From positions 388,926,001 to 388,990,000 of the forward strand of contig NW_027362762.1 in the NCBI RefSeq assembly GCF_046119375.1: a stretch of 64,000 nucleotides of DNA, given 5' to 3'. Shown piece after piece: positions 9,696 to 59,220 of the stretch. Under the pieces are notes generated by a model that was not told where the DNA came from, searched no databases, and saw nothing but the letters and a program-made list of their open reading frames with translations. The DNA comes from Phyllobates terribilis. Its lineage: Eukaryota. Position 1 is the first letter of the stretch. Each line of letters starts with the position of its first letter. Made by a program: the position numbers and the translations under genes.

Positions 9696-9714
9696 TGACG
9701 TAGTCGGCAGGATT
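9696..9714 (+). promoter_or_regulatory. Primer-binding site complementary to tRNA-Ser 3' end
   Basis: TGACGTAGTCGGCAGGATT versus expected TGGCGTAGTCGGCAGGATT (complement of vertebrate tRNA-Ser ...AATCCTGCCGACTACGCCA), one mismatch, 5 nt after the 5' LTR. Confidence 0.85.
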
Positions 9715-11112: not shown

Positions 11113-11130
11113 AGGGCCAACCCCTAGGAA
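11088..11130 (+). promoter_or_regulatory. Predicted -1 programmed ribosomal frameshift signal (gag-pol)
   Basis: T TTA AAC heptamer at 11088-11094 in correct gag phase, followed by hairpin CCTAGGGT...ACCCCTAGG. The -1 frame is open into the protease ORF (11169-11088 = 81 nt). Confidence 0.8.
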
Positions 11131-11168
11131 AAAGATCATCAGGCCCATCGAACTGGCGCGACAAATAT

Positions 11169-11471
11169 GTGGGAGGACGTCCAGTCTTGCCTGTGGTACT
11201 GGATGGCATTCCTATGAGTGCCCTACTGGACACCGGGTCACAGGTCACCACCATCCCGTACGTGCTCTTCAAGCAGTACTGGAATGACTCGGATATTACC
11301 CGCTACCCTGACGACGACTTGAGTATCATCGCCAGCAATGGTCAGCCCGTGCCACAGGTCGGATTTAAAGAGGTGACCATTAAAATTGGTAGAGTTGAAC
11401 TGGCAGCACAGGGACTGATCGTTGTAGACATTGACAAACACGAGTCACCCAAAGATAACTCTAGGAACTAA
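11169..11471 (+). CDS. Gypsy aspartic protease segment of pol
   Basis: LLDTGSQVT active-site motif. Out of frame with the rest of pol by +1 near 11450. Confidence 0.88.
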   Translation: MGGRPVLPVVLDGIPMSALLDTGSQVTTIPYVLFKQYWNDSDITRYPDDDLSIIASNGQPVPQVGFKEVTIKIGRVELAAQGLIVVDIDKHESPKDNSRN

Positions 11472-15177: not shown

Positions 15178-15529
15178 AGTGTATAAATTGTTTTATTTGT
15201 GGTTACCTGTTTTTCTTGTTGCTTGTGTATAATTATGTGTTTCTAGTTGTTTATAGGAGTCTTTGGTGGATTTACCGGGAATCCTGTGTACATAGTTGGA
15301 GCGTAACCCAGGACGGACTAAAGACTGTTAAGGACTCAGGGCAGGACAGACCCCTACCTGGTTACGTCTCCCTGTTTTGGTGAAATGGACACCTTGCTTT
15401 CTTCAAAGACTGCACCCGGTTACGGACATGCCGTGACCACCTTTATGTGTTTCTTTATTGTATTGTTATTGTTATATCTTGTTATGTTTTTTCTAAAATA
15501 TGTTTAGTCCCGGAGTACTAAATTTCACT

Positions 15530-15538
15530 AGGGGGGAA
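15530..15538 (+). promoter_or_regulatory. Polypurine tract
   Basis: AGGGGGGAA immediately before the 3' LTR. Confidence 0.85.
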
Positions 15539-16539
15539 TGTGGCACCCCAGGGGTCTGGTTTCCACAGTAACAGCAATGTTATGTCTGAGAGCAGGTGGG
15601 AGGTCTCTTGGTCAGGAATCCTATGCATGCCACACCTCCTGCCCAGTCCTGGGAGGGGAAGGACTTCCCCTATATAAACCTGGGGCTGAGGCAGGGTTAG
15701 TGAGTAGAGAAGAAGTAGAGACAGAGAAAAGAAGCAAATATAGGAACAGAACATCAGGAGCTCTGTGGGAGCAGTGTTACAAGGAGTCAGGGACTGGCAG
15801 CTGCAGAGCTCGCCCTGACTGAGAAGATTTCTTACCGGACCCGGAGTCCGAGGCTGTGGGGACTAACTCCTACCCAGCAGCAGAATCCGTCAGGCAGGGG
15901 ATTCCAGGTCCTCTGGCCAAGAAACCCGAAGGCACGGTCACACGCATGGGACCAGCACCGCCGTCGTGGAGCGGAAGCTACTAGAAGGCCCCGAGTCACC
16001 GGCCATACGGGTGAGCACCACACGGTACACTCAGGGACGTGGGCTACTTATACCCGCTTCTAGCAAGGTAGCCAGAAGAGTATCGTTAGTTTGGGAGGCC
16101 TACAACTCCGCCTGGCCAGGGGAGATCCCATCTGCTCAAGGACTGACCAGGCCCCAATCGCTAGCCAGTACTCCGGGAGGGTCTATCGTTGTCACCAGTA
16201 AAGACCCTGAACTACACCGTACCGTCTCTGAGTGGTTCCTGCTACCCCCATCATCCACGTCGGCTGCCCTGAGGCCATACCCCTCCCGTTGGGGGTTATA
16301 CTATCACGCTGCACAATCCTACCACCGGCCTCAGCGGTCTGCCCTGCAGCAGCAGCTCCTTAGCTGTACTCAACGGGTGGCGTAGTCGTCCAACATCTAC
16401 CGCTAATACAGCGCCACTTAGTCTGACTCCCTGGGCACGGACCGGGTCACCGCCACGAGACTACAACCCTCAACAGATCCGGCTCCGGGTAAGCTCCCGC
16501 ATGCGCAACGCAGCGCGACACAGGCCCAGGGGCGCGTCA
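15539..16539 (+). repeat. 3' LTR of Gypsy element 1
   Basis: Near-identical copy of 8690-9690, followed by TSD CTGA. Confidence 0.97.
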
Positions 16540-32077: not shown

Positions 32078-33675
32078 GCTCACAGGCACCATGTGACCCT
32101 AGACTGATGTCATGTCAAGTGAGGCATGAGCCCAGTGGATGCTGGGCTGTGGGCGGGGTTTCCACCTCACATCACACCCTGCATCCACCGCGTGCTTTTC
32201 CCAATGAATGAGAAGAGGGAAAGTGAGCCGTGGAACGCAGAAGTAAGTCACCCCCAGCTGCAGCCGGAACTTGTTATGACATCAGCGGATGTCAGAGCCG
32301 GCTGCAGCCGGAGGTCACGTGATGCCTGTGAGCGGCAAGTGATAGCGCCGTTCACAGGCAGTAACTGCAATGCAAGGTACTTACAAAAACCCTTATGGGC
32401 CCCAGGGGAATACATTAGGGGGATAATAAAAAAGTAGTGGACAACCCCTTTAACAACTCCAGGTCAGATTACCAATACACTAGCAGGAAGCAGCAGATCC
32501 CCGTGATAGAGACAGGGGCAGCACAGGTGCAAAAAACTGATGGAGTAACCACTCACACACCTACCAATATCCTTTCATACTCTGCCAACTTTATATGTTT
32601 ACATGCATCTATGCACTATTGCACTTTACTTTCATAACAAGATGCTTGTGTGACATTCAGAAGTAGTGCTGTTGCATCAAAAGCATCCAGCAACTATTAC
32701 AAATAACACAAGCACAAAAGACAGGAAGTGTTGTGCTTAAGAAGCATACAGCAACTAGAGGAGTTAACAAAGTCACAGGAGACAGGGAGTGTTTTAACAG
32801 AGCCCCAGGGGGATTGTGGGGAACTTGTTATTGTAGTCTGGCTGAAGCTGAAGAGAAAGGTGGTGTGTTATCTGGATCTTACAGAAACTGAACAGGATTC
32901 AGATCAGGAGAAAAACTAAACACAGGTCAGATAAACTCCCTGAACTAAAGGCCCTGTCACACATAACGAGATCGCTAGCGAGATCGTTGATACGTCACGG
33001 GTTTTGTGACGCAATAGCGACATCGCTAGCGATCTCGTTACGTTTGACAGGTAGCAACGATCAGGCCCCTGCTGTGAGATCGTTGATCGTTACAAAGCTT
33101 CCTGGACCATTCCTGGGTCATTGCACTCCCGCTGGGCAGTGTGCATCGCTGTATTTGACACCTAGCCAACGACCTCGTCAGCGATTCAGAGCAGAGACAT
33201 GTAGGCGTGCATAAATTGGACTTTTCCGCGCCCCTCGTCCCCGATTGGTGGTCGCTACAGCGTTCTCATTTCCGGCCGCGCATAAAGAAGGCAACAGAAT
33301 AGCGATTCCGTCCTTTGTTTCTGACCTCGTGCTTGATTGCAGATCCTAGCAGAGTTCTCCGGGCTGTTAATATCCGTTCATTGGACTAGTGCTGATTTTT
33401 GCGGATCATTGTAGCGTTCTCCAGCTGTGACTCCGCTTTGAACAAATCAGGCATCTTTAGTGAGGTAGGTATTGTTTGAGGTCTCAAATGCGTTTCCATT
33501 TTTAATCCATTTTTTACCAATTATCTGCTATCTTTGCTCTTCAGGGAGGGAGGGCTTGGCTTCTATCTGTATATATATGCTTTTGCATGGACAGATATTT
33601 TAGGGGTCTCATGCACACGCACCCACACAGCACGTTTTCTGTCATGCTCACTAACAGAATGGAACATGGTTTTCC

Positions 33676-35025
33676 ATGATATTTTTTATGTACAGTTTCA
33701 ATACTTGTGTTAATTGTTTTGTTGAAAGTGTTCTCATCTTTTCATGTTATGTTTGCAGTTTGCACATCATGGACGACGGGCAGTGTGCTATTGTGGTTGC
33801 TGCATTGCTGGTTGAGGAAGCTCGGCATCAAGATGAAGCACGAGAGCTACAGAGGCGTTCCAAACGAAAGCGTCGCATGTGGACCAGAGAGTGGCTGCAG
33901 AAGAGGTCTGAATTGTCCCACATGCAACTTGTAAGAGAGCTTCAGGAGAAGAATCCTCATGATTTCCGCAACTATCTGAGGATGTCAGAGGAATCTTTTA
34001 AAGAGTTACTGGAACGAGTTACGCCACGTATTCAACGGAAGGATACAGCGATGCGTGCTGCCATACCGGCAGATGAAAGATTGGCAGTCACACTGAGATT
34101 CCTGGCCACCGGACGCTCACTCCAAGACTTGCATTTTTCTGCAGCCATTTCAAGGCCCATGCTCAGTGTTCTAATCCCGGAGACATGTAATGCAATTTAC
34201 CACAGTCTACGTAGTTACATACAGTTTCCCAACACGGCGGAGGAATGGAAAAAGATTGCCTCTGATTTTGAGCTGCTGTGGCAGTTCCCTAACTGTGGTG
34301 GGGCTTTGGACGGGAAACATGTCCGAATCACTCAGCCACCAAATAGTGGATCCTATTTTTATAATTATAAGGGCTATTTCAGCATCATCATGATGGCCCT
34401 TGTTAACGCCAATTACGAATTTATAAATGTAGATGTTGGCATGAACGGCAGGGTTTCTGATGGTGGTGTTTTAGAGCACACACTTTTTGGAGAGCGATTG
34501 GACAACTGTGACCTACACTTGCCTCCCAACTCAGAGACTACAGGTAACCTTAATTTTGTTTTTGTCGGCGATGAAGCCTTCCCACTTCATCCCAATCTTA
34601 TTAAACCATTCCCCCAAAAAAGTCTTACCCAGGAAAGAAGAATTTTCAATTATCGTTTGTCAAGGGCACGTCGTGTTGTCGAAAATGCCTTCGGTATCAT
34701 GGCCAACCGCTTCAGAGTTTTTCACACGCCAATTAACATGAAGCTTACATCAATAGACTCTGTTGTTTTGGCCTGTTGCACGCTTCACAACTTTCTTCGT
34801 CGACGTGATGCAATTACGTACTGTCCGCCTGGCTTCGTGGACTCTGTGGACCTAGCCAATGGGGAAGTGGAGCTCAGAGAATGGCGTTCAAACGATCCTG
34901 CAATTGTAGGCCTTCAACCAGTAGGATATGGCAGAAACACCCAGGATGCGAAGACCTGCCGCGACAACTACTGCCAGTATTTTAATGGTCCCGGTGCTGT
35001 TACTTGGCAGCATAAGAACTTATAG
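33676..35025 (+). CDS. Harbinger (HARBI1/IS5-like DDE) transposase, intact ORF; likely start at 33769 (MDDGQ)
   Basis: FRNYLRMS, LAVTLRFLATG, ALDGKH, YFSIIMMALVNANYEF, SDGG, VGDEAFPL, FNYRLSRARRVVENAFG, CTLHNF. Confidence 0.93.
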   Translation: MIFFMYSFNTCVNCFVESVLIFSCYVCSLHIMDDGQCAIVVAALLVEEARHQDEARELQRRSKRKRRMWTREWLQKRSELSHMQLVRELQEKNPHDFRNYLRMSEESFKELLERVTPRIQRKDTAMRAAIPADERLAVTLRFLATGRSLQDLHFSAAISRPMLSVLIPETCNAIYHSLRSYIQFPNTAEEWKKIASDFELLWQFPNCGGALDGKHVRITQPPNSGSYFYNYKGYFSIIMMALVNANYEFINVDVGMNGRVSDGGVLEHTLFGERLDNCDLHLPPNSETTGNLNFVFVGDEAFPLHPNLIKPFPQKSLTQERRIFNYRLSRARRVVENAFGIMANRFRVFHTPINMKLTSIDSVVLACCTLHNFLRRRDAITYCPPGFVDSVDLANGEVELREWRSNDPAIVGLQPVGYGRNTQDAKTCRDNYCQYFNGPGAVTWQHKNL

Positions 35026-35160
35026 TGGGCAACTACTGACAATTATACACTACTTTCAGCTTTGTACTGATTTGTCTAATAAACTGTGTTTTACTTTGCA
35101 AAAGCTTTGTTTCTCATTGTTTCAGTAGTAAGGGCCCGTATATACATACGTGTACTACTC

Positions 35161-36083
35161 CAGGGGCGTACATAGGAATCATGGGACCCCATAGCAGAAG
35201 TTATAATTGGGGACCCCCCACAAAAAAAAAAAAAAAGTAAATAATTGTTGGGGACACAGAAGAGCAGATCTCACAACCTTCCAGCCTTTGCATAGCAACT
35301 TTCTTCCTTTCTGAACTCCTAGATTCCTCTTTCATAGCCCCATAAAATGTGATGCCAACAAAAGTGTCCCCCTTAACACAGTATGATACCCCGATGGTGA
35401 ATTCCTCCTTTTTAGCCTCCACATGCACAGTGTAATGACCCTAATGTATCACATGAGCCATGTATGAGGGAGTTGGTGTCGTGGAGTCGGAGTCATGGAA
35501 ATTGAAGAGTCGGTTTGGCTTGCCGACTCCACAGCCCTGTATACCAGGATGGGAGAGCATATACATATGCATACATATACATAATGCACTCGCTGTGGTC
35601 CTCCACACAGTATAATGCAGCCCCCCATAGGGTAAAAGGCAGCCCCAGTCCTCCAGTATTATCAGTACTGACTGATTTACAAAAATATATAAATACATAC
35701 TTACCACTCCTCATTCCCCGCTGCTTCAGTCTCTGCAGCCTGTCTCTCTCATCACGACAGCAGCTGGCAGCTCCACTGTCTGACACAGCGTGGTGCATCG
35801 TAGCAGCGTTGCCACTGTTTGATTAACCGCCACCCACTGGCACTGTACTCAGTAATGGCTGCGTGTAGTGTGCTGTGCGGCTGTGTCTTGTAGTAATGAC
35901 GCAGCAAGGCCGACACAAGCACAATTAAAGGCACGGCCATGTCTGAACACAGTGGCAGTGGGCGGCGGCGGCAATCAAACAGCGGAGCGTGGGGTACAGA
36001 ATGGGGGAGACTGCTATGGGGTCCGCTGGCTCACGGGCCCCATAGCAGTTATGTGGCCTGCCGCCAATGGCGGTACGCCACTG
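35161..36083. mobile_element. Non-autonomous hAT element between the two Harbinger genes
   Basis: CAGGGGCGTAC ... GTACGCCACTG termini. Flanks TACTACTC and TTGTACTC match at 6 of 8 positions. Confidence 0.65.
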
Positions 36084-36502
36084 TTGTACTCATATGTATA
36101 CAGATACATCCATATACACATACATATTCAGATACATAAAAATCTACACCCATATCCACACTTATATACAGATAACTAAATATACACACACATACTCACA
36201 GACACAAAAGTATGCATACCTATCTAAAAATATAGATACATATGTCTACTTAAAACCACCTAGACACCAGTGTTCCTGTGTGACCGTCAGACTGGAGACA
36301 CTGCTGCGTTCTACAGATGACGCATTATCGATACAGCGTCTCCAGTCTGACAGAGATGCTAATAATTCAGGTCGCAGTAGCGTCCTCTAATAAACGCGCG
36401 TGCTTATGGGTGACATTACTGCGTCGTGGGCGTGGTTACCGACGTTGATGCGTCGTGGGCGAGTCGAACGACGTAGTTGCGGCCTAGCTCATTACTAGCA
36501 AT

Positions 36503-37642
36503 ATGGCATCCAGGGTGAGAGCACCTCCTTGGGGCGATGCTGAGGTGCGCTACCTTGTGGAGCAGCTGGATGCACTGGATTATGAGTGCCACGTGCACTC
36601 TGAATGTCCAGTGCTCCATAAACGGGCGGTGCTGCAGAGGATCGGTCGGGGCTTGATACGGAGATTTGGGGTGCTGCGCTCTGCTACCCAAATCAGAAAG
36701 AAGCTGGCGGACCTGAAGTATAGGTCTGCCGACCGTATCGCCAGCATCCGGTCACAGACTTTGCCCCATCGTGGTGAGTGGTTTTAAAATATGTTAGCAC
36801 AATATATGGCAGCACATTAGTTACAACTGCAATTACCTTAGGTATCTAATGTTATTTGTTTTCCAGCACCTGCAGCCCCAGAGCCCCCGCGGGAGTCACC
36901 TGCAGCCCCGGAGCCCCAGCAGCAGTCATCCACAGGTTCGCCAGCATCACTCCGTGATATAGGTGCAGCTTCGTCTTACGGTAATGCTTTCACATAAAAT
37001 ACGGTCCATACAACTTGGAAAGTATAGGGCTGTCATGTACTATGAAGTATTGTGTCTTTCCCTAGCCGGTGATGCCAGGGGATCCGGGTGGTCACTCAGC
37101 ACGCCATCATCTGAGCAAACCGAAAACCGTAAGTGTTAAATAACAAACGTGTACCTGATAGGCTGTGTGCCCACGATGCGTTTTTTAAGGCGTTTCTGCA
37201 GCGTTTTTGCATGGTAGAAGGGCAGCAATGTTACCCAATGATAATCCGCATGTGCTGTGCACATGCTGCGGAAATTTCCGCTGCAGATTATCATTGCGGA
37301 AAAAAACGAAGCACTACCAATTATTTTGCAGAAGGGGTTTTTTTTTGCGCCGCCATTGACTTGCATTATAATGCGCCAATTCTGCAATACTGCATCTGTA
37401 CTTGCGTAATTAGCACGTTCTAATGTGCGGATGGTACCCGGGTGTGGTGCATTGTGGGCACATAGCCTTAATTTGATGAATGTACAGAATTATTGGACTT
37501 AAGTTTAACAATTACCTCCGTAGAAATCCCTACATTACACGATCTCCTGGCGTCACAGCGGAGGCTTAGTGAAGAGATCCACCAGCTCGGAGTGATGCTG
37601 GCAAGATTTGTGGCAGCCCATGAGCGTCGCGGCAGCCAATAA
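36503..37642 (+). CDS. Harbinger Myb/SANT-like DNA-binding protein, 4 exons (36503-36773, 36867-36980, 37066-37128, 37524-37642), about 188 aa
   Basis: Exon 1 encodes a Myb/SANT-like domain (W..AEVRYL...L.RRFGVLRS..QIRKKLADLK). All three introns are GT..AG and phase 1. The joined frame is open to TAA at 37640-37642. Confidence 0.8.
37161..37467 (-). mobile_element. PIF/Harbinger MITE (GGCTATGTGCCCAC family), internally deleted copy 3, in intron 3 of the Myb/SANT gene
   Basis: GGCTGTGTGCCCACGATGC ... GCATTGTGGGCACATAGCC termini with ATA/TTA flanks. Confidence 0.8.
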
Positions 37643-37803
37643 AATTTTTTTTTTATGTTGTTGATATTTTTTAGTTTGTTGTTATATTTTTTCTATTTTT
37701 ATAAAAAAAAGTTAAAGTTTATATCCACTGTTGTCTACACTTTGTTACAAACAAACAAGATGTTTCATCACTCACACCCATTATATGTATGCATCTGTAT
37801 AGA

Positions 37804-37900
37804 TCAGAGGTCTGAAACACGCGGCCCGTGGGCCGCATGCTGACCCTCCAGCTGCTTCATGCGGCCCGCAGGCACAGACCCCGTAAGTATCGCGGCTCTT
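37804..37900 (+). mobile_element. Left-end fragment of a hAT MITE
   Basis: CAGAGGTCTGAAACACGCGGCCCGTGGGCCGCATG resembles the common CAGGGGTCTCAAAC..GCGGCCCGCGGGCCGCAT hAT terminus. Joined abruptly to LTR sequence at 37901. Confidence 0.6.
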
Positions 37901-38425
37901 TGCAGAGTGTTATCAGGTAGGAAGATAAGGAATGGAAGGAATCGTGTCACATTGATCATCTCCCTCATCAAACCCTCCCCCCTCCATCTCCATGCAAGAT
38001 AAAGAATGCTGTGTACTATTGTGTCCTTGTGAAGGAAAATCCTGTGGTTGTGTATGCATAGAAGTGTGCTGCTAAGAGATCTAATCTATGCTGAATTATG
38101 CTACTGAAGAGACTGTAATACTGTGCCTTGTGAAGAGACTACTGTATTGTTACTGGAGCCAGTTACTAAAGAAACTCAGACTGTACTGTAAAGAAGATTG
38201 TTGCTGTAATATCCCTGAATTGCACTGGCCGTGCTTCAGATTAAATTCCACTGTTAAACTGTTGAAAAAGACTCTTGTCAGATGTGTCTGGTCAACAATT
38301 GAATCTATCGTGTGCCTGAGAGAATCTGCAGCCTATGATCGCCCTGAGTAACGGTTCCCCCAGGATTCCAAAGAATTCATGAAACCTGTCTCCCCTATCT
38401 GATCCAAGCGGCGTGCGTGTAACAT

Positions 38426-38443
38426 TAGTGGCCCGTACGGGGA
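38426..38443 (+). promoter_or_regulatory. Primer-binding site complementary to tRNA-Ile(AAU)
   Basis: TAGTGGCCCGTACGGGGA versus expected TGGTGGCCCGTACGGGGA, one mismatch, 1 nt after the 5' LTR. Confidence 0.82.
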
Positions 38444-38992
38444 GTCCTGAGCGTGTAGAGGGAGAAGAGGAAAAGTGTCTGGTAAAACACAGCAGCACAG
38501 CAACTCAACTCAACTGTGCTACACCAGTTAAATGGGACCAGCCCTAAAGAAAACTCACTAGCAGCAATGGATGTGGAAATACAAATGGACAGAATTAGTG
38601 AGCTGTTTCTTCAGTTAACCTGTGAAGAGTTGAGAACAGTAGCAGAACATATAAAAATGTCAGAAGAACAGATTTCAAAAGCACACAACCGCAAGCAACT
38701 GTTAGCTGCTATTAATGCAAAAATGGATGAGCTGGGGGAGAAAGAAGCTGAAGACATCATGGGGACGTTCCTCCAGGAGCTAACACAGTTTCTAACCAGG
38801 TTGAAGTTGGAGTATGGAGGGGCGGCACCAATTACCAAAAGCGGGAATCTGAACTACAGGAATTGAAATAACAATTCAAAGCCCTAACAACAGCCATGCA
38901 GGAATCGACCAAAACCGCTGAATGGGTGACAGACTCAGACAGAACCTTTAACCTGCTCCAGTTAGATAAACCAGGAAGACAGTCCTCTCTAA

Positions 38993-39739
38993 GGCTATGT
39001 GCCCACGATGCAGAAATTCTCCAGATTTTTCCTAAGCGTTTCTGCATCTCCCTGGCAGAAAAAACGCATTTGGATTTTACATGCGTTTTTCTGCCAGGGA
39101 CAAACATATGTCCCGCATTTTTCACATGCGATTTCGCATGCGGGTTGTCAAGTGCTTTTCCAAGCGATTTTAGCATCACTTGGAAAAGTGCTTGACAACT
39201 TGGTCACACTATATAAATCCATGCAACCGACATGGATTTATATAGTGCGACCAAGTTAATAGTTAAAAAGAATGGTAAAAAATAAACATTATACTCACCT
39301 TCTGATAGCCCCCGGTCTCCTTAGCGATGCGTCCTGGCTCCCCAGGTGAGTATAATGTTTATTTTTTATTTTAAAATCTTTTTTTTACAGGTACTATGGT
39401 ACCCGGGTCTGGATGAGAGTGTCCTCTTCTCCAGACCCGGGTACCATCTGCACATTGAATCGCTTAATATCTGCATGTGCACATGTAGTCATGTGGATAT
39501 TAAGCGATTCAATGCAAGTCAATGGCGGCAAAAACGCCGCGCTTACGCAAAATAACTGGTAGTGCTGCGGAAGTTTCCGCAATGATAATCCGCAGCGTAA
39601 ATTTCCGCAGCATGTGCACAGTACATGCGGATTATCATTGGGGAACATTGCAGACCTTCTACCAAGCGCTTTTTAAGCGTTTCTGTGGCGGAATTGCTGC
39701 AGTGGAAACGCTTAAAAAACGCTTAGTGGGCACACAGCC
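38993..39739 (+). mobile_element. PIF/Harbinger MITE (GGCTATGTGCCCAC family), copy 4
   Basis: TAA|GGCTATGTGCCCACGATGC ... TTAGTGGGCACACAGCC|TAA. Confidence 0.88.
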
Positions 39740-39812
39740 TAACACCACAAATCACCATAAGGAAAGAATTCAAGATCCTAGGACAGATTGGAGACTGAAC
39801 AGAAAGAGAAAC

Positions 39813-40652
39813 TGTTACACACATGCCGCCTAAGTTCAGATAGGGGCGAGACCGGTTACATGAATTCGTTGGAATCCTGGGGGAACCGTTACTCAGGGCG
39901 ACCATAGTCTGCAGCTTCTCTCAGGCACACAATAGATTCAGTTGCTGACCAGACACATCTGACAAGGGTCTTCATAAAAGGTAGAACAGTAACATTTAAT
40001 GAGGCACGGCCAGTGCAATGTAAATGTCTCTTTGAGCAACAGGCTCCAGTAATAACAGTACAGTCTCCTTTGCCGCACAGCAGTACACAATCTATTATCC
40101 GGTAGCACAGTACAGCACAGTTTTAATGCATACACAACCACAGGCTTTTCCTTCACAAGGACTCAATAGTACACAGCATTCTTTATCCTGCATGGAGATG
40201 GAGGGGGGAAGGGTGTGATGAGCGAGACGATCTCTATGACAGGCGTCCTTCCAGTCCTTATCTTCCTGGCTGATAATACTCAACACTGTTAGCTCAAGGA
40301 GTCTAACTGACCTTTGTTTAGCTTCCCTTTTGACCTGAATTCTGTTCCCTTGCCTTCTGTGAGATGCAGATCATAAGCCACCTTTTTCTTCGGTTCCAGC
40401 CAGAGAGTAAACAACTTCCCCACAATCCCCCTGGGGCTCTGCTAAAACACTCCCCTTCTCCTGTGACTGTATTAATCCCTCTAGTTGCTGGATGCTTCTG
40501 GAGCACAACACTTCCTGTCTCCTGTGCTTGTGTTACTTCTAATAGTTGCTGAATGCTTTTAAAGCAACAGCATTACTTCTGAATGTCACACTCTGCAACA
40601 GCACTACTTCTGCATGTCACACTCTGCAACAGCACTACTTCTGCATGTCACA
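39813..40652 (-). repeat. Inverted solo LTR of the Gypsy 2 family inserted in Gypsy 2 gag
   Basis: Reverse complement of the Gypsy 2 LTR (TGTTACAC...TGTCACA), with 4-bp TSD AAAC at 39809-39812 and 40653-40656. Two extra 31-bp copies of the LTR start lie at 40591-40652. Confidence 0.88.
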
Positions 40653-41732
40653 AAACGGTCTTATATGAGCTTGTTGCACCAGATCAATGCAGGCTTAAAG
40701 AAAGGCTACCAGCAAGATGAGATCGTTGAGAGGGTGGTGAAAGCGATCAGCCCAGGACTGAACCTCCGTAGTATGCTAGAAATGAAGAGTCAATTGACCT
40801 TGCAACAGCTCAAGATGATTTTAAAAGGCACTATGAAGAAGAGAGTACTTCAGAATTGTTCCACCGTCTCATTAACCTCTCACAGAAAAATAATGAACCT
40901 CCCCAAAGTTTCTTGTTCAGAGCAATTGAACTGATAGACTGTTGTTTGCATCCAGAAGCGGAGGAGAGGTTTGATGCTGGACTAGTCCAGAAGAAGTTCT
41001 TGAGATCATTGGGAATGGGGTTAATCAGCAAAGACATCAAGTTGCAGCTGAAACAGTACCTAGAAGATCCTGGCATTCTGGACGAAGTCCTAATTGAAAA
41101 AATGAATGAGGAAGCTAGTTTGGAGTCAGAGAGCGAACAAAAGTTAAAGAAATGCTCTGCTCCTAAAATCACCAAAATGAGTCAGCTGAAGTTTGAGACC
41201 CCCGGTGGCCAGTCCAAAGATTATCATGGAGACCCTTCAGTGCCACCTCCGAGAGGTAACCTTAAATCACCAACAAAAGAGAGGACTGCCAGCGCTGACT
41301 GGGAGGAAGTAATAGGAGAACTGCAAGCCGAATTGATTGAGGTGAAAAAGTTGATTCGTTCCAGGCCAGAACCTGTATCCCTCAGACCCAGTAGTGGGTT
41401 CCTAAACAGAAGATACCTGGCTTGTGAATCGTGCCGTTCTTCAAATCAGAGTACAGTGTGTGTCCACTGTCTAAGATGTGGTGAGGAAGGACATTATGCC
41501 AAGGAATGCCAATGGTCATGGTCGTTTGGGTTAAAAGACAGGAGATTGCCAGTGCGTGACTGGTAAGCACGACATGAAGGAGGCCCCAGACCAAATCCAA
41601 ATCTCACCAAACCCCAGAACGGCGCATGAGGTAAAATGACTGCATCAGTACTATCCCCAAGAGTGTTCCCATCTACAACAGCTGCAAGAGAGACAGGGGC
41701 ATCAGTTACTTAATGCCCAGTGCGGAGGTCAA

Positions 41733-44700
41733 ATGATGTACTCCTGGGAGGAGGATTCCTCAGTCAGTAAAGATAGCCTCATCAGCCTAATCGGTGAAAG
41801 GTGCTTTATACAGTGCCAGCTAGATGGACTCCTGGTAAAAGCACTGATGGACACAGGAACCCAAGCGAGCCTTTTAAATGAAGAGTGGAGAAGGCGCTAC
41901 CTGAAACATACCTGCTTTCGGTCGCTAAAAGAACTCTTAGGACTTGTGGAACTCCATGGCAAAGCTGTCAACCAGACCGAAATCCCTTTCATAGGCTGGG
42001 TGGAAGTGACTTTCCATCTGAGGGCCACGAAGAACAGCAACACCATTGAGCTTTTGATACCTTTTCTTGTGACGAGTGATCAGAACGTGGCAGAGGATAA
42101 TATCCTGGGTTATAATGTGATCAGTGAGATCATCACGAAACACAAGTCAGGGACGCTGGTGGTGGACGCAATTGCCACATCACTTGCCATACCCAACGCC
42201 GTGTCAGAAAATGTGATTCATAAAGAAAGAACAGAATACAATGGGCCTAAAAGAAGTCAAGGTAGGCTGGCGCCCAACCACAATCCCTGCAAACCAAATG
42301 GTGGGGGTGAGATGTGGAGTCCGGGTAGAACCAGGAAGAAAAGTCCAGAAAAGACTGTTCGTGCCAAAAGACTCCTCAGAACTTCCAGAAGGCCTAGTCC
42401 AAGGTGAGACTGTGCTTATGATTCCTACTGATGGGTTTGCTCGAGTGACATTACCGGTGATGAATACTATGAAACACGAAATTAGACTGGATCCAAAGAC
42501 TGTGTTAGCTCACCTTGAAACCATTAAAACGGTATATCCAGCCAGTGTGGGACCCACCCAGGGGTCTACCGTGAATTCATTCTCCCCACCAAGGAACAGG
42601 ATTTGCCCAGGGGAGGAAACTGCAGGACCCACCTCAGGGTCCTGGGATTCCCCAGTATCCCTGGAACACTGGTGTGCTGAAGATATAGCGATAGCAAAAC
42701 AGATGCTGAGAGAATAGTGTCATGCATTCTCTAAAGATGACTCTGATATAGGCTGTTTCCCGTCGTTGCAATTGAAAATTAATTTGAAAGACATGACCCC
42801 AGTAACCAGAAGTTACATGTCTGTAACAAAACCATTACACTTTGAAGTGAAAGAGTATTTACAAGATCTAATCAACAGAGGTTGGGTCCAAAAGTCAAAG
42901 TCGTCTTATTCCTCTCCTATTGTTTGTGTTAGGAAGAAGGACAGTATGTTGAGACTCTGCTGTGATTACGGGGAACTAAACTGAAAGTCAGTACCTGATT
43001 GGCACCCGATACCAAAAATCCAAGATATGCTGGCTAGCCTATCAGGAAGTACCTGGTTCTCTGTCCTCGATCAGGGTAAAGCATACCATCAAGGGTTTGT
43101 TGAAGAGTCCAATAGACCCTTGACAGCATTCATCACACCGTGGGGGTTATATACGTGATCCGCATACCGTTTGGGCTCAGTTCAGCTCCAGCAGAATTTC
43201 AGAGGATTAAGTGACGATATCTGCCAGCCGTATTTGGATGACAATGTGGTAGACAGCAAAACCTTCCGGGAGCATGTTGAACACGTGAGGACCGTAATAC
43301 TGCAGTATCAACAACACGGAGTTAAGTTGACCCCAAAGAAGTGTGAACTGTTCAAAAGGAAAGTCCAATTTCTAGGGAAAATTGTGTCCAGAGAAGGATA
43401 TACCATGGACCCAGCAGAAATCGCTCCGTTACTGGCCTTAAAAGACAAGCGGCCCTCTGCTGTCGGGGAGTTGAGGCATATCTTAGGATTCCTTTCCTAC
43501 TATCGTGCTTACATTCGGAAATTCTCCAGGATTGCCGCCCCACTATACCTCCTCTTGGGGGGGGACAACAGAGTCAACAACACCCACGGAGATAAAGAAG
43601 AACGCGGGTAGGACCGGGCTTAAAAGAAACAATGCCGTTTCGTCCCAACAGCCCATTCTCTGGACAGCAGACCACCAGGAGGTATTGGAAGAACTAGTAG
43701 ACTACTTGGTAAAACCACCCTTCTTGGATATCCTGATTTCAACTTACCATTTGTTCATCATTGTAACGCTTCTTAAGTTGGACTGGGAGCTGCCCTATAT
43801 CAGCATCAAGATGGAAAATTGAGAGTCATCGGTTATGGTTCTAGAATGTTGACAGGCGCTGAGAAGTATTACCATCTACATTCCGGAAAACTGGAGTTCC
43901 TGGCATTGAAATGGGCTATCTGTGAAAGATTCAGAGATTATCTCTACTACAGCAAAGAGTTTGAGGTATACACTGACAACAACCCTTTGACCTATGCCCT
44001 CACTACAGCCAAACTGAATGCAACGGGTCAGAGATGGGTTGCTGAACTAGCTGACTTCAATTTCAGCATGAAGTACAGGCCAGGAAAATCCAATGCGGAT
44101 GCTGACGAATTGTCGAGAATGCTACTAGAGCCTGAGGAGTTCATGCAGGAAGTCAATCTGGAAGCAATTGAGAGCACTACCCAAGTAGTGCAAGCTTATC
44201 AAGAGGGAGACACACAATTGTGGTGTCTGTTGACGGTGGAAACCACCATAAAAGTGAGAGAACAAGATCACCTCCTGTCCATTCAATAACTAGCAAAAGG
44301 AAAAATCCGTAGAGCACAACGGGAAGATCAGATAATTGGTAGAATACTACTTTATGTGGGCCAAAATCGGTTTCCAAGTAAATGGGAGAGAGATAATGAG
44401 TCATCAGCAGTGAAGACGGTATCCTGTATTATAAAGGACAAAACCGCAAGTTGGTACTACCCAGAGTATTCCATAGGTTGGTCTTCAAAGAACTCCATGA
44501 AAACATGGGACAGCTGGGAGTGGAAAGGACAATCAACTTGATCCGTGAACGTTTATTCTGGCCGTACATGCAGAGAGATATTGAGAGGTACGTGACCAGG
44601 GAGTGTGGGTGTCTGAAAGATAAACGTCCCAACACTTCAACCCGGGCACCTATGGGCAACATCCAAACTACGTATCTGTTTGAGATGGTCTCAATAGACT

Positions 44701-45955
44701 TTCTACATCTCAAGACATGCAAGGGTGGTTACGAATACATATTGGTAGTGATGGACCATTTTACTCGATTTGTTCAAGCATATGCCACCACCAATAAAGC
44801 TGGTCGAACAGCGGCAGAGAAGATCTTCAATGATTTTTGCTTTAAGGTTTGGGTTCCCTATGAGGTTACACCACGACCAAGGAAGAGAATTTGAGAACCA
44901 GCTCTTCGCCGAGCTGGGAATTTACTGTGGAATTCAGAGATGCCACACAATGCTCTATCACCCAGAGAGTAATAGACAAGTGGAACGTTTTAACCGGATA
45001 TTATTGTCGATGTTGCGTACTTTAACAGCTGACGAGAAGAAAGACTGGAAGAGTTCTGTCAAAAGTGGTACATGCCTATAACTGTACAAAGAGCAATGCA
45101 ACGGGTTACTCACCCTTCTTCCTATTGTATGGACGATCGCCAAGACTGACAATTGACATCATGTTCGATACTCCGGTGTCAGAGACTTACAGAACGTATC
45201 CGGAGTACGTTCAGAAATGGAAGGAACGGATGGCAGAGGCATATAACATAGTGTCCAAAATGGTTAAGCAAGGACAGAGCAAGAGTAAGGAGTACTATGA
45301 TCGAAAATGTTATGGAGCTGAATTGGCACTGGGAAGCCGAGTGCTAGTCAAGAATGTACGTGAGAAAGGTGGTCCAGGAAAACTTCATTTGTACTGGGAA
45401 GACAAGGTGCATGTGGTCGTAAAGAGGAAAGCTGATGACAGTCCAGTGTATGAAATCCAATTGGAAAGAGGGGACAAGAAAACCAGAATAGTCCATTGGA
45501 AGTTATTACTACCTTGTGATTATCTCCCACCACAACAAGACTTCCCAGAAGCAGACCGACATCGACTGAGATCGACTAAGAGACCACCACAGATTGAAGC
45601 TCCGGTGGTGGATAGTGACCTTGAAAGTTCCGATGAAGAAGAGCACACTGTTGTATTTCTCGGACCAGCAAGGAGAGGGATGTACCATCCTCAGGAGAGT
45701 GAACTAAGTCCCGAGGCTCCAGAGTTTGTACCCAGGAGTACAGATGAAGTCCAATTCAGATCTGATGATGGAACACCGGTCACTGGAGAGACCGATCGAC
45801 ACTCAAGAGAAGCGGAATTACCAGACCGTGGAGAACCAGGCGATTCAGGAGAAGTACAGGAACTTACAGAGGCAGCTCCAAGAGCATCTGAGGAAGCACG
45901 GGAAATGAGTGCGGAGGAAGAAACTCCTGTGACCGAAAGAACTCGTGGTATCTGA
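41733..45955 (+). pseudogene. Gypsy 2 pol (PR, RT, RNase H, IN) with many stops and frameshifts
   Basis: LMDTGTQAS, SPIVCVRKKD.MLRLCCDY, YLDD, YTDNNP..., [36 protein letters not shown]. Confidence 0.9.
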
Positions 45956-46441
45956 GGAACAACCCACCAGGAGGAGGTCGACTCGAGAAGTGAGGAGGCC
46001 CGTGATGCTAACATATGAGACACTTGGTGAACCAAGTCAAGTGCCAAGGACTGTCGACTGGAAACAGGAATCTCTGCCTACGGACCAGGTAAGCCCACTG
46101 GAGTGGCATTCACCACCAAGAGGCAGTATGGAAGATATTGCTTGGTGGAAAGACTTGTTTTCATGCTTTGATTTTCCTTAAAAGACTTTGTAGAAACAAA
46201 GAACTGTTAAGGCCTAGTGAGGGAGAGAGCTGGTTGAAGATGTATGAAAAGCTTCAGCTGAATAGACGCTGATTGTGTAGTTTATTTCTTGCAGGTTTCC
46301 TACAAGAAAGAGGTCGTAAGAATAGGTTGTTATCAATGTTTATAAATGTTATGCAATTTGTATTTAAAGTTACTCAACTTTCACCACGGTTTCAGAATTG
46401 GTGAGATTGACCAATTAAGACGAATGTTGAGGACGACATTC

Positions 46442-46457
46442 AAAAAGGAGGGAAGAG
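46442..46457 (+). promoter_or_regulatory. Polypurine tract of Gypsy 2
   Basis: AAAAAGGAGGGAAGAG directly before the TGTCACA start of the 3' LTR. Confidence 0.82.
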
Positions 46458-47741
46458 TGTCACATGCAGAAGTAGCGCTGTTGCTTCAAAAGCATCCAGC
46501 AACTGTTACAAATAACACAAGCACAGGAGACAGGAAGTGTTGTTCTTCAGAAGCATCCAGCAACTAGAGGGGTTAACACAGTCACAGGAGATCGGGAGTG
46601 TTTTAGCAGAGCCCCAGGGGGATTATAGGGAACTTGTTATTGTAGTATGGCTGAAGCCAAAGGGAAAGGTGGTGTGTTATCTGGATCTGACAGAAGGCAA
46701 CTGAACAGGATTCAGATGAGGAGATAAACAAAACACAGGTCAGATAAACTCCCTGAACTAAAGCCCCCATCTCACATAGCGAGATCGCTAGCGAGATCGC
46801 TGCTGTCACGGTTTTGGTGATGCAACAGCGACCTCACCAGCGATGTCGCTATGTGTGACACTTTGCAACGATCAGGCCCCTGCTGTGAGGTCGCTGATCG
46901 CTGCAAAGTGTCCTGGACCATTTTTTGGTCGTTGCTCTCCCCCTGGTCAGCACACATCGCTGTGTGTGACCAGCGGGAGCAGCGATCAGGCTGGTAACTA
47001 TGGTAAACATCGGGTTACTAGGGGCACACGCACACCTAGTAACCCGCTGTTTATCATGGTTACGAGCCTGCTAAAGTGAGCGGTAACCTCCCGCTCACTG
47101 TAGCAGAGTGGTAACCATGATAAACAACGGGTTACTAGGAGCGCGTGTGCCCCTAGTAACCCGATGTTTACCATAGTTACCAGCCTGCTCCTGCTTCAGC
47201 AGGCTCGTAACCAGGAGCAGGACATCGTGGAAAGATTCTCTCCACGATGTCGCTGCTCCCCTGATCGCTGGTGAGCCTGCCTGTTTGACAGCTCACCAGC
47301 GACCACATAGCGACGCAGCAACGATCCCTGACAGGTCATATCGTTGTCGGGATCGTTGCAGCGTCACTAAGTGTGACGGGGCCATAACAGTGCAGAGTAT
47401 TATCGGGTAGGAAGATAAGGCCTGGAAGGAATCGTGTCACAGGTATTATCTCCCTCCTCAAACCCCCCCTCTCCATCTCCAGGCAAGAAACTCAGACTGT
47501 ACTGTAATGAAGATTGTTGCTGTAATATCCCTGAACTGCACTGGCAGTGCTTCAGATAAAATTCCACTGTTAAATTGTTCAAAAAGACTCTTGTCAGATG
47601 TGTCTGGTCAGCAATTGAATCCATTGTGTGCCTGAGAGAAGCTGCAGCCTATGGTCGCCTTGAGTAACGGTTCCCCCAGGATTCCAAAGAATTCATGAAA
47701 CCCTTCTCGCCCTATCTGAACCTAACGGCATGCATGTAACA
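46458..47741 (+). repeat. 3' LTR of Gypsy 2, interrupted by a Harbinger MITE and with an internal deletion of about 150 bp
   Basis: Matches the 5' LTR pieces. gcaaga|aactcagac junction near 47488 lacks a segment present at about 37998-38170. Confidence 0.88.
46762..47384. mobile_element. PIF/Harbinger MITE (623 bp) related to the left end of the Harbinger at 32949
   Basis: TAA TSD at 46759-46761 and 47385-47387. Imperfect TIRs AGCCCCCATCTCACATAGCG and GTGTGACGGGGCCA. Central palindrome at about 46984-47190. Confidence 0.88.
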
Positions 47742-48212
47742 CTTGCACATAACTCTTTATACCTGTATACTGCTATATATATTTGAAACTAGGTCAATTA
47801 CAGCCACTCTTGGCTACTCTTATCCTATATATTTATGTACTATTTTGTACACTCTGGTGTATATTTTTTGACCTTTATGATAAATTGTACATGCCTTTGT
47901 ATGTGTTGCAGATATTCAATGATCCCCCTCCCCCTTTTTTACTTATTTTAATAGATCTAGCTAAACATATTGATTTGTCAGTCGGAATAGTGCCCACTTT
48001 TCATCTGGTTGTTTTCCCACCTTGTAATACCAAATCCTTGATCAATAAAGTTTGTATATATATTTATTCACCATCACTATTGAATTGACTGTCGGTTTTT
48101 CTTGTCTTGCTTGATTTTTTATGATTTCTCCGATGGGTCACCATTTAGTCCTTAGTATACGTGCACTTATAGCAGGAAACTTCTCCCGATATTTAGCTTG
48201 ATACTTAGTTAA

Positions 48213-50755: not shown

Positions 50756-52325
50756 CAGTCATGGCCAAAAGTATTGAGAAAGAGACAAATAGTATTTTTT
50801 CCAAAGTTTACTGCTTAATTTTTTGTAACGGCAATTTGCATATACTCCTGAATGTCAAAGAGTGATCAGCTTAACAGCAATTATTGTACTTGCAAAGTCA
50901 ATATTTGCCCAGAAAATGAACTTTAACCCCCAAAACACATTTCAACATCATTACAGTCCTGCCTTAAAAAGAGCAGCTAACATCGTTTTAGTGATTGATC
51001 CATTAACACAGGTGTGGGTGTTGATGAGGACAGGGCTGGCGATCAATCAGTTATGATTAAGTAAGAATGACATCACTGGACACTTTAAAAGGAGGCTGGT
51101 TCTTGGTATCATTGTTTCTCTTCAGTTAACCATGGTTATCTCTAAAGAAACACGTGCAGCCATCATTGCACTGCACAAAAATGGCCTAACAGGGAAGAGT
51201 ATCGCAGCTACAAAGATTGCACCTCAGTCAACAATCTATCGCATCATCAAGAACTTCAAGGAGAGAGCTTCCATTGTTGTCAAAAAGGCTCCAGGGCGCC
51301 CAAGAAAGACCAGCAAGCGCCAGGACCGTATGTTAAAACTGTTTCAGCTGCGGGATCGGACTACCAGCAGTGCTGAGCTTGCTCAGGAATGGCAGCAGGC
51401 TGGTGTGAGTGCTTCTGCACGCACTGTGAGGCGGAGACTCTTTGAGCAAGGGCTGGTTTCAAGGAGGGCAGCAAAGAAGCCACTTCTCTCCAGAAAAAAC
51501 ATCAGGGACCGACTGATATTCTGCAAAAGGTACAGGGAGTGGACTGCTGAGGACTGGGGCAAAGTCATTTTCTCTGATGAATCCCCTTTTCGATTGTTTG
51601 GGACCTCTGGAAAACAGCTTATTCGGAGAAGAAGAGGTGAGCGCTACCACCAGTCTTGTCTCATGCCAACTGTAAAGCATCCTGAAACTATTCATGTGTG
51701 GGGTTGCTTCTCAGCCAAGGGAATCGGCTCACTCACAGTCTTGCCTAAAAACACAGCCATGAATAAAGATTGGTACCAGAATGTCCTTCAAGAGCAACTT
51801 CTCCCAACCGTCCAAGAGCAGTTTGGCGCCCAACAATGCCTTTTCCAGCATGATGGAGCACCTTGCCATAAAGCAAAGGTGATAACTAAATGGCTCATGG
51901 AACAAAACATAGAGATTTTGGGTCCATGGCCTGGAAACTCCCCAGATCTTAATCCCATTGAGAACTTGTGGTCAATCATCAAGAGACGGGTGGACAAACA
52001 AAAACCAACAAATTCTGGCAAAATGCAAGCATTGATTATGCAAGAATGGACTGCTATCAGTCAGGATTTGGTCCAAAAGTTGATTGAGAGCATGCCAGGG
52101 AGAATTACAGAGGTCTTGAAGAAGAAGGGGCAACACTGCAAATATTGACTTGCTGCATTAACTCATTCTAACTGTCAATATAACCTATTGGTACTCATAA
52201 TATGATTGCAATTATATTTCTGTATGTGATATAAACAACAGACAAACACTAATAAAAACCAGAGGCCAGCAGATCATGTGAAAATATAATTTTGGTGTCA
52301 TTCTCAAAACTTTTGGCCATGACTG
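50756..52325 (+). mobile_element. Full-length Tc1/mariner transposon (1570 bp), DD35E type
   Basis: TA TSD at 50754-50755 and 52326-52327. 25-bp TIR CAGTCATGGCCAAAAGT(A/T)TTGAGAA with one mismatch. Intact transposase. Confidence 0.95.
51132..52148 (+). CDS. Tc1-type transposase, 338 aa, DD35E catalytic triad
   Basis: Paired-like HTH N-terminus, GRPRK, FSDES, VWGCF, QHDGAPCH, WPGNSPDLNPIENLW. 35 residues counted between the second D and E. Confidence 0.95.
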   Translation: MVISKETRAAIIALHKNGLTGKSIAATKIAPQSTIYRIIKNFKERASIVVKKAPGRPRKTSKRQDRMLKLFQLRDRTTSSAELAQEWQQAGVSASARTVRRRLFEQGLVSRRAAKKPLLSRKNIRDRLIFCKRYREWTAEDWGKVIFSDESPFRLFGTSGKQLIRRRRGERYHQSCLMPTVKHPETIHVWGCFSAKGIGSLTVLPKNTAMNKDWYQNVLQEQLLPTVQEQFGAQQCLFQHDGAPCHKAKVITKWLMEQNIEILGPWPGNSPDLNPIENLWSIIKRRVDKQKPTNSGKMQALIMQEWTAISQDLVQKLIESMPGRITEVLKKKGQHCKY

Positions 52326-57649: not shown

Positions 57650-59220
57650 TTCTCCCGGAGGGCTATGTGGGAGCCATTATACTGTGTGGAGAGCTATGTG
57701 GAGACCATTATACTGTTTGGGGGGCTTTGTGGGGAACATTATACTGTTAGAAGGGTTACACTTTTTAGAAGGCTATGTGGGGGGGGGGACATTAAATTGT
57801 TTGAAGGGCTATGTGAGGGAGGGCATTAAACAGTATGGAGGGATATGTGGGGGGCCATGAAACAGTTAAAAACAGTTTGGAGGGCTGTGTGGTGGCCTTT
57901 ATACTGTGTAGACTGCTATGTAGGGGTCATTATACTGTTTGAAGTGCTATGTGATGTGCCATTATACTGAGTGCAGACCATTATACAGTGTGGAGGGTTG
58001 TGTGGGGTCTGCCTTACTGTGTGGAGGGTTGTATGAGATCCATCAGGCCTGTGTGTGGACCATCATATTGTGTGCAGGGCTATGGGGGGGCCTCATATTG
58101 TGTGGGAGGACTGTGTCAGGGCCATCTTACTATGTGGGTGACTGTGTCGGGGTCATCTTACTGTGTGTGGGGAACTGTGGGAGCTATCATACTGTGTTGG
58201 GGTCACTATGGGGGCATTATACTGTGTTGGGGACACTGGGGTATCATACTTTGCGAGGAGTACTGTAGGGTCATAATATTAACAACAAAGTTCCGCACTT
58301 GGAATCCTGAAAATTGTTACTGGTTATTAAACTCAATTCACATTAACACACCTACTCTTCTCAAATGGGACACAAGTCCCTCGAGAAAAGAAAACGAGTA
58401 TTTAAACCTTAAAAAATCAATATTTTATTAAGACAGCATTAAAACATGGTAAAACAAATCACAGTGCTTCACATATAAGAACGGGCATATATATATATAC
58501 ACAACCACTGTTGCTATGGATATGGAGTTGCAAATTTGCAGTATACTACTCACAAATGCGACCGTATTGCTTGTTCAAAGACATAAATGAAATTAAACAT
58601 AGTAGTGCCAATAAAATTATCTATCTTTGTAAAGCCATGGTCGCTAGTGGAAGGAATGTTATAAAATATTGTGCAAAAAGATGCAGGAAAAAGCCCATAA
58701 GCATCAAAACATAAACAACAGTGGAAAAACCTAATTAGGTCACGCCAACAGGGAAATACTAAATGTAATTACCTGAATCTGTATATTGACGCTAGAGCTA
58801 GGGGGCGACAGACGGGCTACTATGTTTAATTTCATTTATATCTTTGAACAAGCAATACGGTCGCATTTGTGAGTAGTATACTGCAAATTTGCAACTCCAT
58901 ATCCATAGCAACAGTGGTTGTGTATATATATATATGCCCGTTCTTATATGTGAAGCACTGTGATTTGTTTTACCATGTTTTAATGCTGTCTTAATAAAAT
59001 ATTGATTTTTTAAGGTTTAAATACTCGTTTTCTTTTCTCGAGGGACTTGTGTCCCATTTGAGAAGAGTAGGTGTGTTAGGGTCATAATATTGTGCGTGTG
59101 GGGGATACTGTGGGGCAATTCACTGTGGGGGTATCATACTTTGTTTGCGGGACACGTTTGTTAGCATCTTACTATATGGGGGCCATGAAAGGGGTATCTT
59201 AGTGCGTGGGAACACTAAGG
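57650..59220. repeat. Old degenerate minisatellite (ggggcattatactgtgtggag-like), interrupted by the 58281-59076 insertion
   Basis: Recurrent attatactgt/atcatactgt cores with G-rich spacers on both sides of the insertion. Confidence 0.65.
58281..59076. mobile_element. 796-bp insertion with 262-bp inverted arms and a 15-bp TSD (Penelope-like retroelement inferred)
   Basis: Direct repeat TAGGGTCATAATATT at 58266-58280 and 59077-59091. Arms 58344-58605 and 58817-59078 are reverse complements with one mismatch seen. Family assignment is inference from architecture. Confidence 0.7.

Follow-up and report, generated by a model that had tools for sequence, protein, structure and literature searches.

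Different Harbinger elements in the two LTRs of a Gypsy retrotransposon of Phyllobates terribilis share one target TAA: probable separate insertions at a nested-insertion hotspot

Single positions within a target transposable element (TE) can be hit repeatedly by elements of one family (Levy, Schwartz and Ast 2010, PMC2836564). At identical positions of MIR3, hAT (MER1) elements occur in either orientation, and nested-insertion hotspots need not fit a known target motif (PMC2836564). The locus described here resembles these cases in that one TE position is hit repeatedly, in both orientations; it differs in that the hotspot results reported there are from human, do not involve Harbingers and include no element with both of its LTRs hit (PMC2836564). 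Repeated hits on a favored site in the course of a burst account for a seemingly improbable double insertion (McGurk and Barbash 2018, PMC5932611), in that case as tandem copies at one site, whereas here two homologous sites 14 kb apart are occupied. The PIF/Harbinger elements and the Tourist-like MITEs, as characterized in the surveys cited here, duplicate a TWA target, encode a DDE transposase and a Myb/SANT-type protein, have terminal inverted repeats (TIRs) starting with A or G, and show a weak preference that extends about 3 bp to either side of the target (PMC4482050, PMC2836001). The elements analyzed here share these features, although the family is larger, about 9 kb compared with the PIF/Harbinger group mean of about 4.1 kb (Han et al. 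2015, PMC4482050; Hancock et al. 2010, PMC2836001). Unlike typical members of the group, it carries nested MITEs, tandem arrays and two ORFs of the Myb/SANT type, and the related MITE also departs from the group, in that 9 of 35 copies pair TAA at one flank with TTA at the opposite flank. The TWA duplication, the Harbinger-type DDE transposase, a MADF gene and the TIRs starting with A or G place these elements within PIF/Harbinger. Repeated hits at one nested-insertion hotspot are a known kind of event. Our literature search, which was too limited to claim absence, found no paper that, judging by its title, describes a MITE at the same position in both LTRs.

All coordinates are positions in the window, the stretch of 64,000 nt of P. 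terribilis DNA that was analyzed (GCF_046119375.1, NW_027362762.1), and features are on the plus strand unless stated otherwise, the two cargo insertions within the 5' insert being given without a strand. The host is a Gypsy element (32649-47741) with a true LTR pair, flanked by the target duplication CTTG (32645-32648 and the identical 47742-47745). The 5' LTR is split into a left part (32649-32948), which begins with TG and ends in the target TAA (32946-32948), and a right part (37901-38424), which ends with CA and lacks TAACAG at a deletion junction. Directly after it lies a PBS-like motif (38429-38443), which we take to match tRNA-Ile. A broken gag-pol, with zinc knuckle, RT, RNase H and integrase in several frames, and a polypurine tract occupy 40700-46457. 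The left part of the 3' LTR (46458-46761) ends in the target TAA (46759-46761), and the second TAA with the right part (47385-47741) retains the CA end but has an internal deletion of about 170 bp. The TG..CA LTRs, the short target duplication and the order RT-RNase H-integrase are those of Ty3/Gypsy. Within the gag region, there are an independent insertion of MITE2, a third family of Harbinger elements (38991-39741, with a TAA duplication), and an antisense solo LTR of a related subfamily (39813-40652, minus strand, AAAC duplication), which differs by 15-16% from both host LTRs.

As stated in the original prediction, both LTRs are broken at the same TAA, after CCCTGAAC-TAA, and the empty site is seen in the antisense solo LTR (40289-40291). 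The 3' insert is indeed a complete Harbinger MITE of 623 bp (46762-47384), with TAA at each side; it belongs to a family of at least 3824 copies. Hand counts of differences in the first 60 bases held as well, with 5 between the LTRs and, for the inserts (about 10 by hand), 9 substitutions and one gap of 2 bp once aligned. The homology between the inserts, estimated at about 250 bp, proved shorter, 209-211 bp at 80-81% identity.

The 5' insert (32949-37900) had been described as a Harbinger of 4.9 kb with two genes. It is a Harbinger with a transposase; it is, however, the remnant of a larger element, and the second gene is weak. The insert is about 95% identical to two family copies, L121 and L124, over its whole length (95.4% over 5007 columns for L121), and because all of it aligns to one end of elements of about 8-9.5 kb, it is the first 4.95 kb or so of a truncated element of about 9.1 kb. 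The open transposase ORF (33769-35025; 418 aa from the likely ATG) has no internal stop and matches DDE_Tnp_4 (E 3.5e-32), its assignment to the Harbinger type being made from this Pfam domain. The second ORF (36503-36772), the size of a first exon, is Myb/SANT-like, but its match to Myb_DNA-bind_4 (E 0.0038) is below the Pfam curated cut-off. Two cargo insertions are present in the 9-kb family: a presumably hAT-like one (35159-36085, ends set by eye) common to L120-L125, which is skipped by a public-run contig (joint 35150-36085; one run), and a short MITE2 (37159-37469). Missing from the window copy are the far 4 kb or so, the far-end TIR, the second TAA and the MADF gene, which is present in full-length L121 (E 2e-7), as are tandem arrays of 41 bp and 72 bp, likewise within the lost part. 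Members of the family (L120-L124) have TIRs of about 61 bp at both ends, starting with A or G; the window copy keeps one.

At the junction 37900/37901, where the LTR is missing TAACAG (its second TAA and the next 3 bases), the element and the LTR have a 13-bp match. Deletions of P and Ds elements, which result from abortive gap repair or occur at microhomologies, leave one end intact and the other lost, with the junction at a short match. The 5' insert is like these in the lost end and the short match. The 13-mer lies about 27 bp beyond the junction in three of the four full-length copies compared. The window junction, however, is about 29 bp short of the product expected from this match alone, so that, unlike in the P and Ds deletions, one has to invoke a further small deletion. 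Repair at a junction microhomology of 5 bp was rejected because the full-length copies differ at one of the 5 bases. It is highly improbable that the junction is an assembly collapse beside tandem arrays and that the real allele is a whole element: the lost part does carry the two arrays in L121, but these begin about 360 bp beyond the junction, the junction coincides with the element-LTR match, and complete copies of 8-10 kb are assembled on the same chromosomes. Contigs from four public runs (two samples) do not bridge the junction; this carries no weight in either direction, because these are filtered short contigs, with less than 0.4 of the words covered even in the best runs, and at the locus they consist mostly of multi-copy pieces and one low-depth contig of 147 bp in the left flank. 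Even if a collapse had occurred, the double occupancy would be unchanged.

One proposed origin of the double occupancy was that reverse transcription copied an LTR already bearing a MITE to both ends, with gap repair later putting a longer relative in place of the 5' MITE. The same site and orientation in both LTRs, the 209 bp in common at 81% and the repair-type junction at the end of the 5' insert are all compatible with this, but the ages, the LTR tree, the partner LTRs and the first bases of the insert contradict it. The LTR pair differs by 7.6% (48 of 631 non-CpG sites), and the inserts differ by 1.1-1.5% from their nearest relatives. Specifically, at non-CpG sites, the MITE is 1.1% from the nearest of 24 family copies and the 5' insert 1.5-2.6% from all six family copies compared. 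The MITE is therefore too young to predate the integration; a MITE as old as the LTRs is expected to be at least about 3.8% from any other copy (p about 1e-4, assuming 560 sites). Furthermore, in a tree of 66 LTRs, no clade of filled LTRs was found, and the distance among filled LTRs (0.085) equals that between filled and empty ones (0.085). Nor was any Gypsy copy with the MITE in both LTRs detected among the 13 other filled LTRs, two of which have informative partners: only the partners of L037 and L193 still have the site, and it is empty in both; it is missing from the partners of L038, L200 and L203, and the partner of L035 was not found within 40 kb. From its first base onward, the 5' insert is of the 9-kb type, with no MITE-type bases at its start. 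In the model for mPing, moreover, the cuts are made in the duplicated target, which leaves no element ends to prime a replacement (from the account in PMC4561436). We consider the probability of this origin close to negligible. Propagation borne by the LTR, judged by the same insert in both LTRs, an insert age like that of the LTR pair and a clade of copies, was rejected on all three, and no hitch-hiking of Harbingers on the LTR was found.

The divergence of the window LTR pair exceeds that of all five other nearby pairs (2.6-5.2%; one of the five is not a 5'/3' pair), and this is a point against the reading that young elements inserted separately. Recent gene conversion between the LTRs is another route to a shared junction, with the MITE junction carried to the 5' LTR and repair synthesis switching, by way of the end that the two elements share, to a 9-kb element and aborting after 5 kb. 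One such event would cover the same site, the orientation and the missing far end, and the LTRs are identical over the 32 bp before the site. Those 32 bases, however, carry the common allele, and 11 of 98 sites differ just past the site. Over its first 75 nt, the 5' insert matches a 9-kb copy without a difference, whereas at least 6 differences in 43 nt separate it from each of the 24 MITE copies, and the other 14 insertions at the site include no complete 9-kb element to act as a template. Gene conversion thus appears very unlikely.

Scoring occupancy in the genomic LTR copies, as the original prediction had suggested, showed that the site is filled repeatedly and independently. Ten insertions were identified among 13 non-empty matches, against 1751 empty LTR copies, and a search from the other side added 5, for a total of 15. 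These represent three Harbinger families, occur in both orientations and are between 618 bp and several kb long. A loose pattern meant to capture the TIRs of all Harbinger families yielded 40 matches compared with 20-39 in shuffled DNA and was replaced by a BLAST count of three families. Capture-recapture gives an estimate of about 20 hits at the site. With the two insertions of the window excluded, 8 of 1759 LTR copies are occupied, compared with 0 of 2002, 1 of 1587 and 2 verified of 4385 at three control TAAs, out of about 21 in the same LTR (3 of 7974 in total). This is a 10.6-12.1-fold excess (Fisher p 1e-4 to 4e-4), and with comparable search patterns the counts are 7 of 1758 against 3 of 7974 (p 4e-4). 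The control at LTR position 756 (the one with 4385 copies) is poorly designed, because one substitution in the empty site mimics the start of an insert: among the 12 of 44 matches that were opened, 10 were substitutions and 2 were real, with a MITE2 start. The site is a nested-insertion hotspot, about 10-12 times as hot as the control TAAs.

The proposal that Harbingers have a strong, sequence-specific target in this LTR survives in part: the site is struck repeatedly and independently, but the flanks are diverse and more than 99% of the LTR copies are empty. The target duplication is TWA, with one TAA in the 1751 empty LTRs and two at filled sites, and TWA at the first base in 78 of 80 half-sites. 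The target-site logo that had been proposed revealed a weak preference around TWA and no strong motif. Across 115 half-sites, with position -9 ignored because it is biased by the search pattern, clear departures from background occur only at -1 (C 0.63, G 0.25), -2 (A/T 0.71) and -3 (G 0.43), and the flanks are diverse in 200 ends among the matches listed. The NuwaII target, C, TNA, G, was rejected, with C...G in 15 of 39 full sites and the middle base almost always A or T. Given the ten-fold hotspot and reports of Harbingers with extended target preferences of 9-15 bp (in PMC2836001), a long specific target in this LTR could be envisaged, but about 20 hits at the site compare with 3824 and 1737 exact end matches of two families, and we regard such a target as exceedingly improbable. 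By the same comparison with thousands of copies, the label of a strictly target-specific DNA transposon was rejected. A flank matrix leaves the hotspot unexplained: it gives the hot site, LTR site 302, a score of 3.4 but the empty control at LTR position 480 a score of 5.2. Most likely, its cause is an extended target preference or a local property of the DNA or chromatin that a simple flank matrix misses.

The reading that we favor, and consider probable, is that two Harbingers inserted separately, long after the integration of the Gypsy element, at a site about ten times hotter than other TAAs. The Gypsy element, flanked by its CTTG duplication, would have integrated with empty LTRs, as the ages suggest. 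During a recent Harbinger burst, consistent with the hotspot and the relative ages, the MITE would have entered the 3' LTR and an element of about 9 kb the 5' LTR, perhaps in that order and with a shared transposase. The 9-kb copy then lost its far 4 kb or so, the TIR, the second TAA and a further 3 bases of the LTR, probably through a break at the element end repaired via the 13-bp match.

Under independence, 0.006-0.08 double hits are expected for this family, that is, roughly a 1-8% event, given assumed numbers of pairs and regional variation; so low an expectation makes it necessary to invoke a look-elsewhere effect across many families. This improbability speaks for coupled hits, whereby one LTR, once hit or opened, would make the same site in the sister LTR a favored target through open promoter chromatin, local hopping or LTR-LTR contact. 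Both inserts are similarly young, and at the 2079 TWA sites of the window MITE2 has inserted independently another 3 times, compared with about 6 times at 11,633 background sites, although the intervals overlap. We nevertheless consider coupling rather unlikely: both of the other informative partner LTRs are empty, this is a single case chosen for being double, and the inserts belong to different families, so that neither hopped from the other. Unlikely, too, is the broader conjecture that the three Harbinger families home to the TAA by a cue other than the flanks (open chromatin or a bound factor, for example), with the sister LTR of a hit or active element re-hit above chance. The hot TAA lies 14 bp after a TATA-like GATAAA, in what may be the core promoter of the Gypsy LTR.

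The locus provides a clean, countable case of a nested-insertion hotspot. It also calls for caution, since finding one site occupied in both LTRs is not proof of copying by reverse transcription, and relative ages decide. With roughly 3,500 copies, the LTR offers a natural panel of targets in which the empty sites are known, and because TAAs scored alike by the flank matrix differ about ten-fold, Harbinger target choice can be tested on this panel. The importance would be greater if double occupancy exceeded chance genome-wide, and if the homing conjecture were true, DNA transposons would act as site-directed disablers of retrotransposon promoters.

The Gypsy element at window positions 32649-47741, with TG..CA LTRs and a CTTG duplication on each side, carries Harbinger sequence in both LTRs, and this double arrangement at a single TAA is real. 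As the original prediction had it, both LTRs are interrupted after the identical TAA (LTR position 302, here called the hot site; window 32946-32948 and 46759-46761), the insert in the 3' LTR is a 623-bp MITE (46762-47384) with TAA at each side, and the two inserts are homologous, with 209 bp in common at 81%. The empty site reported in an antisense solo LTR (39813-40652) was likewise found; this LTR belongs to a related subfamily, lies in the gag region of the Gypsy with an AAAC duplication, and begins with three copies of a 31-bp unit. The host element is old for its family and has accumulated four later insertions. Its gag-pol is broken, with the domain order RT, RNase H, integrase, and a PBS-like motif at 38429-38443 is, we assume, complementary to tRNA-Ile.

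A young Gypsy (8689-16539) has LTRs 99.7% identical over 1002 bp and long, open gag and pol ORFs, and adjoins the edge of a minus-strand hAT transposase gene (5589-9013) that includes a BED finger. An open Tc1-type transposase ORF of 363 aa occupies 51057-52148, and a near-perfect (99.6%) 262-bp inverted repeat spans 58344-59078 (arms 58344-58605 and 58817-59078).

The 5' insert (32949-37900) had been described as a Harbinger of about 4.9 kb with two genes. The insertion stands, but the sequence is that of a truncated 9-kb element: neither the far-end TIR nor the second TAA is present, and the insert aligns to longer family copies. Seven candidate loci of this family were retrieved from facing TIR pairs 8-10 kb apart; six align to most or all of the insert (L121, 95.4% over 5007 columns), and the seventh shares parts only. 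The transposase ORF is retained (open, 418 aa), along with a second, Myb/SANT-like ORF with a weak match; the missing ~4 kb corresponds to tandem arrays and a MADF gene in the family copies. Judged by sequence comparison, the nested pieces inside the insert, including one at 35159-36085 that we take to be hAT, are cargo of the 9-kb family rather than local insertions. The family itself (L120-L125) is a composite Harbinger, amplified together with nested MITEs and 41-bp and 72-bp tandem arrays; it has the MADF gene and the second Myb/SANT-like ORF, and open transposase ORFs persist. At the truncation junction TAACAG is missing from the LTR, and an LTR 13-mer from just after the hot site also occurs ~27 bp beyond the junction in three of four printed full-length copies (chance ~6e-6). 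A break at the element end was probably repaired by microhomology, which, with a small second deletion, would yield the truncated insert. Gap repair in P and Ds elements provides a comparison for truncated DNA transposons.

It had been proposed that a MITE-bearing LTR was copied into both ends by reverse transcription, the 5' copy later being replaced through gap repair. This is refuted because the inserts are less diverged from their nearest relatives than the two LTRs are from each other. At non-CpG sites the LTRs differ by 7.6% (48/631), compared with 1.5-2.6% between the 5' insert and six family copies and 1.1% between the MITE and the nearest of 24 relatives (mean 4.4% across several subfamilies), a comparison that presumes LTR and insert to mutate at similar rates. 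An insert already present at Gypsy integration would be expected to differ by at least ~3.8% from any other copy; binomial tests against inserts as old as the LTR pair gave p ~1e-4 (MITE, site count assumed) and ~1e-9. The first 75 bases of the 5' insert all match a 9-kb copy and MITE-like sequence is absent there, so that no replacement scar is seen. In a star-like, poorly resolved tree, the 15 filled LTRs are interspersed among 51 empty ones; the mean distance is 0.085 between filled LTRs, 0.085 between filled and empty LTRs, and 0.086 between empty LTRs. Six other filled LTRs have internal sequence attached; the partner is empty in two, lacks the site in three and was not found for one. In those three elements (L038, L200 and L203) the partner has lost the site-bearing part, probably through ordinary decay.

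The alternative proposal, a family with a strong sequence-specific target, survives only as a modest hotspot, the strict target being contradicted by diverse flanks among the 200 matches listed. The hot site is empty in all 29 other top-matching LTRs, and an exact 21-mer count across 10.57 Gb gave 1751 empty sites. The same anchor with a non-empty start matched 13 times (3 substitutions and 10 insertions, two of them in the window), and the reverse-side search 11 times (1 substitution and 10 insertions, 5 of which the first search had missed). The 15 insertions, in both orientations, come from three families, namely the MITE, derivatives of the 9-kb element and MITE2, a further short Harbinger MITE; capture-recapture suggests ~20. 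A common 1.3-1.4-kb non-autonomous derivative (L039/L198, L193, L192) consists of the same element end twice, with an internal TIR. With the window's two insertions left out, occupancy is 8/1759, or 0.45% (95% interval 0.2-0.9%).

Three of the ~21 other TWA sites in the LTR served as controls, the anchors of which may pick up additional LTR subfamilies. Position 480 was occupied in 0/2002 copies; position 273 (1587 copies) gave two matches, one real; position 756 (4385 copies) gave 44, of which 12 were inspected and two are real, the other 32 differing from the empty site by a single substitution. Pooled control occupancy is 3/7974 (0.04%), and the hot site exceeds it 10.6-12.1-fold (p 1e-4 to 4e-4). 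Full reading of 89 LTR copies recognised one Harbinger insertion away from the hot site, and background DNA holds ~6 elements per 11,633 TWA sites (0.05%).

Features of the PIF/Harbinger group are outlined in portions of PMC4482050 and PMC9179366, and the TWA target in a portion of PMC12595863. Across 115 half-sites, position -1 favours C or G, position -2 A or T, and position -3 G, and any biases beyond these are faint; this is closer to the 9-bp preference that plant PIF and mPing show than to the 15 bp cited for vertebrates in PMC2836001. In a flank matrix built from 80 half-sites, the hot site ranks at the 94th percentile with 3.4 times the mean; the empty control at position 480 scores higher (5.2), so that the hotspot is real yet unexplained by these positions. 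The hot site lies 14 bp downstream of a GATAAA box, and its flanks (32930-32948 and 47385-47400) are partly palindromic at 8-11 bp on each side. Of 35 MITE copies flanked by TWA at each end (L044-L073, L232-L249), nine combine TAA at one end with TTA at the other (seven TAA/TTA, two TTA/TAA); L035/L195 has TAA/TTA at the hot site, where empty LTRs carry TAA. By analogy with the mPing model, which places cleavage inside the duplicated target (PMC4561436), such mixed flanks may be donor-flank bases that stayed with the element when it was cut there.

PMC2836564 describes nested-insertion hotspots in the human genome that are position-specific, used in both orientations and do not always match the known motif, and PMC5932611 describes double insertions in flies arising from site preference. 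In the family of the window Gypsy, 0.006-0.08 doubles are expected (0.4-0.57% occupancy with some regional variation, and 400-800 pairs, a number assumed from the 42/89 copies attached to internal sequence), so double occupancy is rare for this LTR family. Harbinger density in the window is perhaps 3x background, with overlapping intervals. Coupling between the sister LTRs would account for the double, an explanation that we consider improbable. The double would be ordinary only if set against all the LTR families and target sites that a 10-Gb genome and a large scan offer.
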